A model generated the notes under the pieces. It searched no databases. It was given only the letters and a program-made list of their open reading frames with translations, and was not told where the DNA came from. The position numbers and the translations under genes are program-made. Shown one piece after another: positions 3,295 through 49,800 of a stretch of 64,000 nucleotides of DNA. Each line of letters opens with the position of its first letter. Position 1 is the first letter of the stretch. This DNA comes from Eledone cirrhosa (taxonomy: Eukaryota): contig OZ024747.1 in NCBI GenBank assembly GCA_964016885.1, forward strand, positions 36,022,001 to 36,086,000. The letters are read 5' to 3'.

Positions 3295-3650
3295 TTCGTT
3301 TCTGAATTTGTTTAGCAAGATTCTTTATTTGAAAACGTGTGTTGAAACCGATATTGTTATACTTTGGGAGATTCATGTTACCAATAAGAAACACACGCAC
3401 CAGTGATTTCACACCAATTTATTATAAATTAAAAAAATATTGTTTTGTTTTTTTTTCAAAAAAATTCATAAATTTCCAGTTGGTTGGTTGGTTCCACAAC
3501 CGTCCGGTTGTAGAACCAACCAACCAACCGGAAATTTATGAATTTTTTGGAACGAAAAAAAAAAATCTATTTTTAATTTATAATAAATTGAAGTGAAGCA
3601 GTTGGTGCGTGTGTTTCTTATTGGCAACATAACCCTCCCAAAGTATAACA
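3295..3650. mobile_element. Palindromic PLE 3'-end insertion (same family as 23190-23467)
   Basis: Arms ~3351-3500 and ~3505-3650; extra tail 3295-3350; right arm ends cccaaagtataacaat(TA)n. Confidence 0.8.
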
Positions 3651-4012
3651 ATATATATATATATATATATATATATATATATATATATATATATATATAT
3701 ATATATATATATATATATATATACATATATATATATATATACATATATATATATATTTATTATTTTTTCATTCATATATATATATATATATATATATTCA
3801 GGTTTTAAGGTTCACCACTGGATAGAGCTGGTCAATACCGTATGGTCAATCTTAATGTAATAATATGGAGAGTACTCAACGCAAAGCAGTTCAACCGTCT
3901 TCGTTTTTGTAGTTGTTGGTGACAGTACGGAGTTAAATATTATAATAAAATATTACACAAATAATACACAAGTCCAGCCTCCTGTCATTTTAGTATATAT
4001 ATATATATATAT

Positions 4013-4391
4013 GCAAAAGTTTTATTTAAGATTTTTGGGTTACAACGAGTAAATCTTTTATAACTGATATAAAAGCACTCAACAGTTTCTGGAGTAGGTT
4101 TACGATATTAAACAAATGGAGACTATATTTATATTTATAAAACCATATTTATTTCGTTATATATATTTCTGGGATATCATATTAAAAATATGCTATGCCT
4201 TCCTCAGACTTTTTAAAAGGAAGTTGCATTATCACAAGGTATGTCACTAATTATTTATAAAACAGCTTATGTATTGTATTTTGTCTGAGGAAGGCATAAC
4301 ATATTTTTAATATGATATCCCAGAAATATATATAACGAAATAAATATGGTTTTATAAATATAAATATAGTCTCCATTTGTTTAATATCGTA
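4013..4391. mobile_element. Palindromic HHR-bearing insertion in (TA)n
   Basis: Arms 4102-4209 and 4284-4390; tail 4013-4101 on the left arm only. Confidence 0.8.
4278..4341 (+). ncRNA. Minimal type I hammerhead ribozyme
   Basis: attttgt-CTGAGGA-aggcataacatatt-ttt-aatatgatatcc-ca-GAAA-tatata-TA-acgaaat. Confidence 0.65.
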
Positions 4392-4415
4392 TATATATAT
4401 ATATATTTATATATA

Positions 4416-5180
4416 TGAATTAAAAATGGCGTGCTGCGTTTTTGCGAATGTGATACATATGAATGAAAAATAGAGGAAGAAAATAGGACTATCCATCATC
4501 AGTGATCTTCTGACTATCATCAGTATTTCTTCGCATTAAAGACCAGATAGCTCAAGTCAGTGCGAGCAATAATTAAAATAAGTTATTGGGATAAAAAGAA
4601 TTGGGTGGAGAAAGAGAGACATATAAACAAACAAAAATGGTAACACAACGTAAAGAGAGGAAAATGAGAAAACAAGTCAATGATACATGTGAACTTAAGT
4701 TCTAGCGAATCAATGACGAGAAGAAGAAGAGGGACGCGTCTGTACCATGCGAAATGTGAGCGAAAAAAGTATTTCACACACGTCAGACGAGAGGAATTGA
4801 GAGAGGGGGAGCAGCAGAGAGTGAGTGAGTTAAATTGAGAGAGGGGGAGCAGCAGAGAGTTAGTGAGCAGCAGAGAGTGAGTGAGTGAAGAGGCCAGGCG
4901 AGAGAAAGAGGCCAGGCGAGAGAGTGTCACTAGCAGAGGGGGTGAATGAAAGTAAGAGGTACAAGGAGAGAGAAGGGGGAAAGAGAAAGAGGATCGCAGT
5001 AAGGTGATAGAAAAAGACAGGTCACAGCTCCACCCAATTCTTTTTATCCCAATAACTTATTTTAGTTATTGCTCGCACTGACTTTCAGTTATCTGATCTT
5101 TAATGCGAAGAAATACCGATGTTAGTCATAAGATCACTGGTGACGGATAGTCCTGGTTTCTTGCTTTATTTTTCATTCAT
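4416..5180. mobile_element. Palindromic insertion in (TA)n with purine-rich spacer
   Basis: Arms ~4458-4610 and ~5028-5180; left tail 4416-4457; minus strand has aagaaata-CTGATGA...tatttctt, a possible decayed HHR lacking GAAA. Confidence 0.7.
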
Positions 5181-6496
5181 ATATATATATATATATATAT
5201 ATATATATATATATATATATATATATTAGAAAGTGAGGTTTTTTTTACAAAATGAAAAATAACCGAGGTGTCCTACACGAGTGGAAGTATAAAGAAAAAG
5301 GGATGAAATCGAAAGTGCAACTGAAGTCTTATTTTTTTTTTAAATATATATATTTATTTGGTTCCTTTACCGGTTTCGCAGTTCTTCTGCTTTTCAAAAG
5401 GTGAGTTGAGATGGAGGGTCTGTGGTTTTTCTCACATCTGGTTGGTCTCTAAATGTTACTTGTTTTATATGGAAAAACTGGCTCGAAAACCAGGTTTTTC
5501 GAGAAGTAATTTGATTGGTTTGTCAATAATTATAATAAATTTCGCGCCAGTTCGCGTTACAATAGTTCTTCAAATAAGAGAAGGGGGGGGGGGGGGTTGT
5601 CACAGGTTGTTTTTTCATATATGAGTGTTTGAATTTCTTTTTACTTGAAAAAATGAGGCTCATGAAGGCTTTTTTTTGGTTGGTTATAAATGAAATTTGG
5701 CTGTCACGTGAACAAGTTTTCATTACATTTTTGCGCCCTTATTTGGAAAACTATTCTGTAGTCTATAGTGAATGTTATGACAATGGAGAGATAGTGGTCA
5801 AGGGAAAAGGGATTGGGAGAAATGTTCTGGTTCAGTGAATATGGCCAGCTGTCAGAGTTCAGGTGTCAGAGTTCAGATTTTCTATTGAGACTGAAGATAT
5901 GTGTTTATTTGTGTGCTTGTGTGTGTGTATATGTGTGTGTGTGTATGTGTGTATTGGAAGATGATTCTATTAGTAGAGATGGGGGAGGGAGTTGTGTGTG
6001 TGTGTATATGGGTGTTATGTGTGTGTGTGCGAGTATGTTAGATAGAGAGAATATATATTTTTTTTTGTGTGTGTGTATATATATATGTGTGTAGGAAAGT
6101 GGTTCTATTAGTAGAAATGGGGAGGGTGTTGTAGGTGTGGGGGTTTTTATGTGTGTGTATGGGTGTTATGTGTGTGGGAGTATGGTTAGCATGTTAAGAT
6201 GAAGAGAATATATATATATATATATATATATATATATTGTGTGTGTGTATGTGTGTGTGTAGGAAAATGATTCCTTTAGTAGGAATATTTTTGAATGAAC
6301 ATATTTTCCTGACTTTTTCGTGTTTGCTGTTGTATTGCCAGTGCAAACGTATGTTTAAGGTTTATTTAGTTCGGGTTTTTATTTTCTAAAGTAGGTGTTA
6401 TGTGTGTGTGTGTATGTCATATTGTGGTGTTGACATAATGTATATTAAACCTTATTTAATGTTGGTCTATATTTTTGAATAAACATATTTTCCTTA

Positions 6497-48360: not shown

Positions 48361-48515
48361 TTCATTATTTCTGAAGACGGCGTATATATGTGTTAGGTAT
48401 GTATATTTAATCTTGATAATTTGTATAATTTTGTATAATTTTGTACATAGATCTGTTGAATATGCATACCAATTATAACACATATATACCCTAGAAACGA
48501 TCGTTAAATAATGAA
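48361..48515 (+). ncRNA. Hammerhead with long stem II insertion (mirror 37337-37491; diverged copy ~48790-48922, minus strand)
   Basis: ttcattattt-CTGAAGA-c-ggcgtatatatgtgtta...taacacatatataccc-ta-GAAA-cgatcg-TT-aaataatgaa; 10 bp stem I; diverged copy has TA at the cleavage site. Confidence 0.82.
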
Positions 48516-48603
48516 CTTTTTTTGTTTAATATAAGGAATTGTTTATTCATTATTTGCTTAATATTTTATATATATATATATATATATATATATATATATA
48601 TAT

Positions 48604-48922
48604 GTAGATAAATCTACCAAAATATACGGTAGTGTCCAATCCGTATTAAGAACTCAATGTAATCCAAATATCATGAAAAGAGAAGATGTATTCAAAATTC
48701 TTTCGATGAAAAACACAGGAAAACAGAGTCAAGATAAATTAATAAAAACAATCAATAAAAACAAAGAAACAGTTCCTTATATTAAAAAGTTCATCATTTT
48801 ACGATCGTTTCTAGGATATGTGTGCGTTGGTATGTATATCATATAGATCTATGTAAAAGTTTTACAAACTATCAGAGGGAATATACATACCTACACATAT
48901 ATATGCTGTCTTCAGAAATAAT
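48604..48922 (-). mobile_element. Diverged solo 3' end of the 37149-48568 PLE family
   Basis: Matches ~37149-37490 including the tail, and starts at the same gtagataaatctaccaa terminus after (TA)n. Confidence 0.8.
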
Positions 48923-49130
48923 TATGACGTATTATATTCGTTTTTTCCCGTTCTTTGCCAGGGAACGTTTCCACGAACCAAAGTATCGTCTTCCTGTCTT
49001 CCTCCGGTTGCAACGTTTTTTAAAATATCCACTTCTGCGTTTACAGATTGACTTTGTTAGTTTCAGAAGATCGCATTAAGGTTGAAAGCAGCGATTCTTT
49101 GCTTAAACTTTAATCTGTTATTTTAATAAA
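48923..49130 (+). mobile_element. 3' end of the CAGAAGA-HHR family (also 57437-57740 and 59359-59520)
   Basis: Shared ...gtttcagaagatc...gaaagcagcgattctttgcttaaactttaatctgttattttaa(TA)n. Confidence 0.75.
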
Positions 49131-49340
49131 TATATATATATATATATAATATAAATATATATATATATGTATATATATACATATATATATATATATATAT
49201 ATATACATATATATATATACATATATATATACATATATATATATATTTATATATATATATATATATATATATATATATATATATATTTATATATATATAT
49301 ATATAGATATATATATATATATTTATATATATATATACAT

Positions 49341-49800
49341 ATATTAATTCAAATATTAACAAAATAGATATTCTTGTGATCAATTAAATTTTATTATACA
49401 TATTTCAGAGGTACTGAATTAAATTCAACAGTACGTCCTCATCAGATAAAATAAAATGATACATGACATACCCTGACATGTCAGATGGTTAAGATTTAAT
49501 CAAGATAGTGGTTAACTTATGGGAAAACTCAATAGTTATACCCTAATATTGAGAACATGAGAAAACGGTTGACCGGGTATGTCATGTATCATTTTATTTC
49601 ATCTGATGAGGACGTACTGTTGAACTTAATTCAGTACCTCTGAAATATGTATAATAAAATGTTATTGATCACAAGAATATCTATTTTGTTAATATTTGAA
49701 TTAATATTAAAAACTCTGGAAAATAATTACCGTAGAGTGCTTCCAATCTACTGTAAAACTCATTTTTTGATGTACTCATTGAATTTTGATTATCTCTTTA
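49341..49800. mobile_element. Palindromic insertion with canonical HHR (49388-49452 minus; 49592-49660 plus)
   Basis: attttat-CTGATGA-ggacgtactg...cagtacctc-t-GAAA-tatgta-TA-ataaaat; arms ~49341-49473 and ~49575-49710; tail 49711-49800. Confidence 0.85.

Follow-up and report, generated by a model that had tools for sequence, protein, structure and literature searches.

Complementary arm ends and a repeated bulged hairpin in palindromic Penelope-like elements of Eledone cirrhosa

Penelope-like elements of the window

The stretch of Eledone cirrhosa DNA analysed here (64,000 nucleotides, hereafter the window) carries insertions that are palindromic Penelope-like elements (PLEs) lying in (TA)n. 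Their architecture is that of EN+ PLEs: the full ORFs of tandem units join an RT with a GIY-YIG at the C terminus in a single frame, partial tandems form pLTRs, and an inverted 5'-truncated copy is present. Pfam matches GIY-YIG on 6483-7721 (E 3.5e-7) and, weakly, RVT_1 in the E5 ORF, and three further PLE ORFs of the window returned no Pfam match. Aligned with the Hydra definition and consensi of PMC8557442, the ORFs of families E17, F2, F3 and F6 present DKT and RW(K) motifs and a CxCx5C linker, with CCHH absent; CxxC/CxH flanks are seen in E17, and the putative HHR and the (TA)n targets are likewise Hydra-type. By these motifs the four families can be assigned to the Hydra clade. The E4 and E5 ORFs, in which a Cx2-5CxxC linker finger and an EN CCHH are both visible by eye, appear from these motifs to be of Neptune/Nematis type. 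A hammerhead-like core and stems could be read by eye in E17, E4 (with a variant core) and F6, and the window gave no Rfam match at gathering score.

The arms of these elements end at two near base-exact sites, A, where the arm is untailed, and B, where it carries a tail of about 34-163 nt. The features of the window are as follows (the E17 unit measures 6559 bp from tandem copies).

37149..48569, E17 palindromic insertion in (TA)n, Hydra clade by motifs, left arm ending at B (tail) and right arm at A
37149..37282, minus strand, E17 tail of 134 nt, spanning site A (37283) to site B (37149)
37198..37278, minus strand, E17 hairpin 1, ACUC ... UU-GAGU, 4 nt downstream of site A on the RNA strand
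37337..37491, minus strand, E17 hammerhead-like motif (type I, stem II long), a sequence reading, mirrored near 48361-48515 (plus strand); its 5' edge is the hot spot for inner arm ends
41031..43025, minus strand, E17 long-arm ORF, 5'-truncated, RT and GIY-YIG, with Hydra-clade motifs (the complete ORF is 813 aa in tandem copies)
43160..44692, plus strand, E17 short-arm mirrored ORF
48604..48922, minus strand, older E17-related arm with a B terminus as in E17
5227..8874, E4 insertion, Neptune/Nematis type as judged by eye, short arm tailed, ORF remnant 6483-7724 (plus strand)
5227..5287, minus strand, E4 tail of 61 nt
13390..16181, E5 PLE insertion, long arm tailed, ORF 13973-16057 (minus strand)
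13390..13430, minus strand, E5 tail, the shortest among three B variants, coding for the ORF N-terminus in tandem copies
3295..3350, minus strand, E1 tail, of an E5-related family
4013..4100, minus strand, E2 tail, family F6 (Hydra clade by motifs), hairpin 1 at 4077-4095
4416..4452, minus strand, E3 tail, RCUC/GAGY pair absent
16234..16267, minus strand, E6 tail, partner arm fused to another PLE body, not (TA)n
22247..22317, plus strand, E9 tail
23749..23798, plus strand, E12 tail, with a degenerate hairpin-like motif
33520..33552, minus strand, E13 tail, E4-related
49711..49800, plus strand, E19 tail, hairpin 1 at 49713-49738
21387..21549, plus strand, additional tail of 163 nt, absent from the initial annotation, hairpin at 21403-21465
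35394..35487, minus strand, additional tail E16; a further copy has the hairpin motif intact
61976..62033, minus strand, additional tail E22, GCUC/GAGC hairpin at 61998-62033

Two complementary arm ends

The initial annotation of this DNA had listed 11 unmirrored tails, all of which are present at coordinates right to within a few bases, and had described most of the partner arms as merging into (TA)n, which ten of the 11 do; the exception is 16234, whose partner arm ends near the internal site and is joined to the truncated body of another PLE. That the tails are element sequence, not flanking DNA, is borne out by their multicopy occurrence across the genome. At least 40 near-identical copies exist of the 37149 tail, those at 3295, 4013, 5227, 13390 (copies of whose end were located by pattern search), 16234, 22247, 33520 and 49711 were found again at other loci, and that at 4416 has elsewhere only relatives of ~80% identity; a second copy of the 23749 tail was not found among the genomic DNA compared. 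The shared terminus claimed for 48604 and 37149 is likewise real (76.6% identity over 350 nt).

Endpoints over family copies, the comparison which the annotation had put forward, are bimodal and complementary in the six families sampled from the genome (E17, E4, E5, F6, F3 and F2). One tailed and one untailed arm are combined in 132 of 134 two-armed insertions (binomial p=4e-37), the A/B pairs per family being 32/33 for E17, 33/33 for E4, 24/25 for E5, 16/16 for both F6 and F3 and 11/11 for F2. The 101 E17 ends divide into 47+1 at A, 44 at B and 9 read-throughs, the 81 E4 ends into 39 at A, 40 at B, one partial and one read-through, and the 70 E5 ends into 36 at A, 29 distributed over several B positions and 5 read-throughs. 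Exceptions comprise one A/A (E17), one B/B (E5), one incidental older B/B (L290) and two partial tails; the E5 B/B is probably a recombined duplicate, since a duplicate of it has the same centre junction and a 60-nt flank is common to it and another B arm. About 16 of 55 E17 clusters are one-armed and end at A or B. Rows that the de novo scan classed as ‘0-tail’ (66/156), mostly inner segments cut at internal TA runs, were left uncounted.

As the annotation had noted, the tail can sit on the long or the short arm, and does so without clear bias (18 longer versus 27 shorter, p=0.23; 17 versus 27 after hand corrections). Some tailed arms are confined to the tail itself (8-83 nt; two in E17, four in E5, five in F3 and two in F2), and these 13 tailed arms have no sequence in common with the partner arm. 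Subfamily alleles are common to both arms in 26/26 E17 pairs (0.15 differences within and 2.65 between), in a comparison of arm haplotypes limited to E17 and E5, E4 having been dropped for a poly-T run and two mis-cut arms.

Both sites present microhomology to TA. At the internal site A the TA/AT microhomology claimed by the annotation, read by eye, amounts to 0-7 nt, and its sum over 11 families, namely those of eight of the listed tails, E5 for the 13391/3295 group, 35394 and 61976, is 38 where random cuts give 11.7 (p=9e-5); the microhomology is weakest at 22247 (1 nt) and 23749 (0). At B it is found in 11/11 families (sum 38 versus 10.7, with none of 400,000 draws as high). In tandem copies the sequence continues past B into the 5' UTR in E17, E4, F2, F3 and F6, and B lies within the ORF in E5; B is an internal site in these copies. 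The annotation's proposal of two different priming sites per insertion, one internal and one terminal, thus stands as regards two distinct and complementary sites, which are strongly supported as a genomic pattern, and is unsupported as regards a terminal one, though processing might produce an RNA 3' end at B.

A strand bias between A and B in G/C interruptions of the TA flanks was not accepted (p=0.09), tract lengths are alike, and a target-site duplication of ~9-13 bp is seen in one case, at C1:60.04M, such duplications being obscured within (TA)n. In two cases, at window position 16870 and at C1:125.85M, an arm is joined directly to another PLE family.

The inner arm ends pile up at a promoter-like wall. 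Short palindromes stop 206 nt past A in E17 and 151 nt past A in E4, and the position of their ends at this wall makes priming close to the 5' end of the RNA probable. The hammerhead cleavage site was rejected as the E17 arm end, as the ends cluster ~140 nt upstream, and a fixed order, with A first or B first, is not claimed because short A arms occur too.

A bulged hairpin downstream of each site

In the Hydra-clade PLEs, A and B are each followed, 0-6 nt downstream, by a separate copy of a bulged hairpin that shows covariation (RCUC...UH-GAGY), and the second hairpin falls outside the inserted arm, just past B. This arrangement of two motifs is conserved between hosts. The RCUC/GAGY motif occurs in 11/32 tail families against 0.4 in shuffles. 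The pair above the 2-nt bulge is formed in 21/22 hairpins, compared with 3-8 in other registers, and varies between C-G, U-A, A-U and G-U. Metagenome loci fell into 61 clusters, 27 of them evaluable for hairpins and 34 not. At least two hairpins lie between hammerhead and ORF in 23 of the 27 (shuffles expect 0.03, and the ORF control gave 0), and the pair above the bulge is formed in 47/51 metagenome hairpins, counts which overstate the number of independent changes because the hairpins are related by descent. At metagenome loci L348, L376, L382, L388 and L390 terminal copies end, as read by eye, 2-5 nt ahead of hairpin 1 or 2, the fit of L382 having a 2-nt offset. The one miRNA match returned by Rfam in six metagenome loci was taken as chance. 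Wobble at the second pair points to the sense strand for hairpins of this genome (G-U 6 versus A-C 1), but to neither strand in the metagenome set (2 versus 2).

The folding energy of whole tails is ordinary (z -1.5, -0.2 and +0.3). The motif pair is found 0 times in both the E4 and the E5 units, and because these Neptune/Nematis-type families are equally complementary in their arm ends, any explanation by hairpins is restricted to the Hydra clade. Of six Hydra consensi published in PMC8557442 and read by eye, three have a clear hairpin, namely Hydra-2_Amil, Hydra-2_Ajap and Hydra-1_Ajap (two copies), two, Hydra-1_Amil and Hydra-1_Obim, have variants, and one, Hydra-1_Crog, is doubtful. No mention of the motif was found in the available text of that paper, and the words ‘hairpin’, ‘bulge’ and ‘dimer’ are absent from its main text.

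Twin priming and its alternatives

The mechanism that gives PLEs inverted copies and a one-sided tail was called unresolved in PMC8557442 and is only partly answered in PMC11167929. One-sided tails with inverted pLTRs are described as 30-40 bp long and ‘optional’ (PMC8557442, PMC3846280), with self-priming or EN resolution invoked, whereas those described here reach from ~34 to 163 nt and are near-obligate on exactly one arm. Our elements resemble Anolis Poseidon (PAc), in which two internal RT starts bracket the tail at the pLTR-ORF junction (PMC11167929); the annotation had rightly pointed to internal initiation in this lizard element, of which both start sites are internal and without target homology. 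PAc has one AC-rich stem loop and, in the available text of PMC11167929, no reported arm pairing rule, in contrast to one hairpin per site (in the Hydra clade) and A/B complementarity here. Its start without homology to the cut DNA also differs from A and B, where TA microhomology, of 2-7 nt in this comparison, is above chance. The one-ended tail and two RT start sites are thus already published, and tail asymmetry by itself is in print; what is new here are the Hydra-clade sites A and B, each just upstream of its own hairpin copy.

In twin priming by L1, each of the two target strands serves as a primer on the RNA of the element, and an inversion joined at the cDNA ends results; the second primer is placed at variable internal sites and the arms do not overlap. 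Here, on the contrary, the sites are fixed and nearby and the arms usually overlap as a palindrome, although the opposite-strand geometry and the 13 non-overlapping arms would fit two antisense cDNAs as in L1. In telomerase, RNA stems bound by protein and a short pairing with the primer position an internal template, while in the PLEs the stem lies 3' of the place of priming and is present twice, and synthesis does not cycle through repeats.

Judged from sequence, the A/B ends probably result from a protein dimer on one RNA that uses both (TA)n strands, once nicked, as primers in twin target-primed reverse transcription. The Hydra-clade motifs would fold in RNA and each bind one dimer subunit, and each nicked strand would pair over 2-8 nt with the AU-rich site just 5' of its hairpin. 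Synthesis of both cDNAs would then proceed 5'-ward and often run off the 5' end of the transcript, and the B-primed cDNA would displace the A-primed one or abort within the tail. The cDNAs would finally be joined at their 3' ends and copied from one another, giving a head-to-head palindrome. As hairpin 2 is outside the arm, only RNA reading through the pLTR-ORF junction would serve both primers. Counting for such twin priming are the in vitro cutting and extension of both strands, the two starts bracketing the tail and the predicted dimer of PMC11167929; counting against it, that paper found the RT start to lack homology to the cut DNA and start sites not to differ between the two strands. Also against it are the strand displacement that two cDNAs overlapping on a single RNA would need and the absence of a pile-up of B arms at A. 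A more specific proposal, on which we are evenly divided, is that the two bulged hairpins of Hydra-clade PLEs are an undescribed cross-phylum RNA element that may seat two RT-endonuclease subunits on one RNA and so program obligate twin priming, one target strand each.

An unlikely alternative, proposed in PMC8557442 and PMC3846280, has self-primed or folded-back cDNA formed first and resolved by EN through staggered TA nicks beside hairpins acting in single-stranded DNA. TA at A and B would suit an AT-preferring nuclease, the arms of one insertion have a common haplotype, DNA cleavage by the D. virilis EN depends on the tail (a result cited in PMC11167929), and the wobble counts do not fix the strand of the motif. 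Fold-back, however, dictates which arm is the copy, whereas the tail occurs on either arm; the 13 tailed arms unlike their partners imply that neither arm is a copy of the other, and Poseidon has target-primed starts at two sites in vitro (PMC11167929).

Twin priming on two RNAs, or by two complexes in turn, from one source locus, the asymmetry arising from protein or event order, would make strand displacement unnecessary; common haplotypes would also be compatible with a pair of transcripts from one locus, and the two arms joined straight to another PLE family are in keeping with it. Equal RNAs nevertheless give no simple cause for 132/134 A/B insertions, as two like hairpins on one RNA do, and we consider this unlikely. 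The model of the annotation, in which one start is internal at A and the other lies at the true RNA 3' end, B, could draw on the base-exact B of most families, on the RNA-seq reads that end at initiation sites (PMC11167929) and on terminal-arm transcripts, which would end at or beyond B. It is very unlikely given that tandem copies read through B, that B is inside the E5 ORF and shows TA microhomology followed by a conserved hairpin, and that the short palindromes end at the promoter-like wall. Tails that were flanking DNA, or insertion of two tailed arms with later loss of one tail between the TA site and the flanking (TA)n, a deletion which microhomology at A would permit, are hardly credible and already contradicted by base-exact ends and multicopy tails, by copies 100% identical to the reference that are already A/B, and by B/B and A/A together making 2/134.

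If the seating of two subunits by two hairpins on one RNA is true, a single rule would cover the tail, the inverted arms and the requirement for a template that is tandem or circular, and the hairpins would be a movable, RNA-anchored, telomerase-like priming signal. The near-absolute A/B rule and the two conserved hairpins make the question of PLE inversion experimentally simple, and the hairpin motif marks Hydra-clade element boundaries, which is useful in annotation. As the RTs of PLEs and telomerase are sister groups, RNA-anchored internal priming would also bear on telomerase origins.

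Palindromes and one-sided tails in the window

The window has a GC content of 32%, in a parent assembly of 3.0 Gb, and is rich in palindromes embedded in (TA)n, the long ones carrying the RT and GIY-YIG open reading frames of Penelope-like elements (PLEs). The arms are arranged head-to-head, the 3' end of the element facing outward in each. All 11 one-sided tails claimed in the initial annotation were found as described, and the partner arm was seen to enter (TA)n in 10 of the 11 cases, the exception being the tail at 16234, whose partner arm abuts another PLE body. At 16870-18470 an arm of the E6 insertion is fused, with no intervening TA run, to a truncated PLE from a different family, and an E17 arm at C1:125.85M of genome G000 (L105-L106) shows the same kind of fusion; both may have arisen through a later insertion accompanied by a deletion or, alternatively, through mixed-family priming at the two nicks.

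Other contents of the window include a run of 200 N (25595-25794) within a decayed Hydra-like ORF region (25086-25492), remnants of Pif1 helicase and Helitron-like type at 9335-12630 (Pfam Pif1_2B, E 1.4e-11) and, judged by eye, remnants of transposase-like ORFs at 30354-31548, of which the one scanned gave no Pfam match. Inverted-repeat and dispersed elements without (TA)n flanks (50968-52142, 55518-55996 and the 29379-57187 repeats) are probably DNA transposon derivatives.

Pairing of tailed and untailed arm ends

The untailed arm end is here termed A, the tailed end B, and the tail is the segment between them. For E17 (37149-48569, Hydra clade) all of the first 100 matches on contig C1, of 1692 exact matches to an anchor placed within both arms so that the sample is unbiased by the tail, gave 55 clusters. 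For the Neptune/Nematis-type E4 (4225 matches) and E5 (5127) the first 30 matches were taken, with opposite-strand pairs and tandems from the next 70, other lone matches being left out, while for the tail families F6 (that of the 4013 tail), F3 and F2 ORF-internal queries provided 20 regions each out of 40-41 listed matches. An E4 'pair' 11 kb apart was removed from the pair count as two separate elements, two nested E17 clusters were matched up manually, partial tails on one E4 and one F2 arm were scored as tailed, duplicated F2 copies in locus L322 were scored once, and F6, F3 and F2 pairs were tallied by eye.

The initial annotation had proposed that each insertion uses two priming sites, one internal and one terminal, for which a bimodal and complementary distribution of endpoints would speak. 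The endpoint histograms are indeed bimodal and near base-exact, with ends at A, at B and reading through numbering 48, 44 and 9 for E17 (n=101), 39, 40 and 1 for E4 (with one partial; n=81) and 36, 29 (over several positions) and 5 for E5 (n=70). The ends are also complementary, 132 of 134 two-armed insertions over six families being A/B (E17 32/33, E4 33/33, E5 24/25, F6 16/16, F3 16/16, F2 11/11; p=4e-37 vs independent ends), or 148/151 once 16 pairs with an anchor-less second arm and an older, incidental B/B palindrome (L290) are included. About 16 of the 55 E17 clusters are single-armed, ending at A or B in roughly equal share. As had been claimed, the tail can sit on either arm: among asymmetric cases the tailed arm is the longer one 18 times and the shorter one 27 times (p=0.23; hand correction gives 17 vs 27).

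Later deletion of the tail is excluded since reference-identical copies are already A/B. A fold-back origin of one arm from the other is likewise ruled out for 13 insertions whose tailed arm, of 8-83 nt, lies entirely inside the tail and has no sequence in common with its partner. Both arms derive from one source locus, given that subfamily alleles are identical between arms in 26/26 E17 pairs and one nested insertion is present in mirror form in both. Centre junctions mostly show 0-5 nt of overlap or small fillers. Three long E17 arms (C1:113.2M and 125.6M) stop near unit position 6120, possibly a second stop site within the ORF.

Sites A and B and the hairpins behind them

The TA microhomology noted at A in the initial annotation exceeds chance (sum 38 vs 11.7, 11 families, p=9e-5), as does that at B (11 families, 2-7 nt, sum 38 vs 10.7; 0/400,000 random draws). 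The two-site interpretation stands in part: the asymmetry and the two sites are supported, but a terminal position of B is not, as tandem copies continue from the tail into the 5' UTR (E17, with the start codon 156 nt past B, and E4, a few tens of nt past B) or the ORF (E5, where the tail encodes its N-terminus). Inner ends of short palindromes form a wall, 9/26 in E17 falling at a single base and 14/26 within 204-210 nt past A, in initiator-like context, and 27/52 in E4 lying 145-151 nt past A, where TATAAAA stands 29 nt upstream; these walls are promoter-like. The cDNA would then probably have run off the transcript at its 5' end, and priming at either site would have taken place kilobases away from the RNA 3' end. 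Some ends (L009, L014, L056, L286, L302) enter (GA)n or (TG)n at element sequence that is itself AGAG or TGT, which is what pairing of the end with the target would produce. In some TA flanks (e.g. C1:147.78M, 158.75M, 12.29M) one interrupted TA unit recurs several times on both insertion sides, reflecting either a pre-existing minisatellite or reiterative target copying.

Scanned de novo, 1.1 Mb of sequence yielded 32 tail families, 11 of which have RCTC at most 22 nt from A paired with a later GAGY (shuffles 0.4, maximum 3 in 1000), a motif that would fold on the RNA strand into a bulged hairpin just behind A (hairpin 1). The ORF-linked families are Hydra-like: E17, F2, F3 and F6, as well as F14 and F4, whose link to an ORF is by proximity only. 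Wherever a tandem copy was obtained for a motif-bearing family (E17, F2, F3, F6, F13, F25; six in all), it shows a second hairpin past B, beyond the terminal arm. Among 22 hairpins picked independently of pairing, the pair above the 2-nt bulge is present in 21 vs 3-8 in other registers (C-G 9, U-A 8, A-U 2, G-U 2), the R:Y pair is G-C in 12 and A-U in 8, and the first bulge base is U in 21. A gap of 0-4 nt separates the end of the TA-matching segment from hairpin 1, and one of 3-6 nt separates it from hairpin 2.

In 27 metagenome clusters (from 78 loci in 61 clusters, less 19 without a detectable ORF start and 15 without a captured hammerhead), the hammerhead-to-ORF interval contains at least two hairpins in 23 and one in 4. 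Shuffles expect 0.03 with two, ORF controls gave 0 and antisense controls 2, the last owing to partial self-complementarity of the motif. Of 51 hairpins in these clusters, 47 have the upper pair and 32 the second and third pairs. Five loci also contain the terminal copy, ending, by eye, just before hairpin 1 or 2. In six published Hydra consensi, judged by eye (PMC8557442 supplement), the motif is clear in three, variant in two and doubtful in one.

The RCTC/GAGY motif was not found in the E4 and E5 units. A hairpin-like GTGT...ACAC pair takes its place in the tails of E4 (5227-5287), E13 (33520-33552) and E6 (16234-16267), with no second copy seen past B in E4. In E9 (22247-22317; tandem copy C2_281, L076) GTGAGT of the tail could pair with ACTCAC past B, straddling site B, an arrangement unlike the RCTC/GAGY hairpins. 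A type I hammerhead-like motif, with a stem II of ~30 bp and a long loop, lies at 37337-37491 and 48361-48515, where Rfam made no detection. The E5 ORF (unit L251-L252) carries a long asparagine-rich insert comparable to the N-rich inserts that PMC3846280 describes in rotifer Penelope.

A candidate mechanism

These features suggest a model in which a dimer would bind the two hairpins of one RNA and both (TA)n strands would be nicked, each nicked 3' end pairing briefly with the AU site ahead of one hairpin. Two antisense cDNAs would be synthesised, the B-primed one displacing the A-primed one or aborting, and their 3' ends would become joined. Since hairpin 2 occurs only at internal junctions, multi-unit or circular RNA would be required to make long two-armed copies; PMC4209133 has suggested circular templates. 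For Poseidon only, cutting and extension of both strands, a tail bracketed by two starts and a predicted dimer have been described (PMC11167929).

The one-end-only tail is already stated in PMC8557442 and PMC3846280, and two start sites in PMC11167929. No statement of the A/B pairing rule, PLE twin priming or the hairpin pair was found in the literature searched, mostly open-access and mainly as listings, in term searches of the available text of PMC8557442, PMC11167929, PMC4209133 and PMC7761336, or in the portion available of bioRxiv 10.64898/2026.07.22.740005. The asymmetry itself is known. What appears to be new is the near-absolute A/B rule together with the hairpin pair, and the two render the mechanism directly testable.
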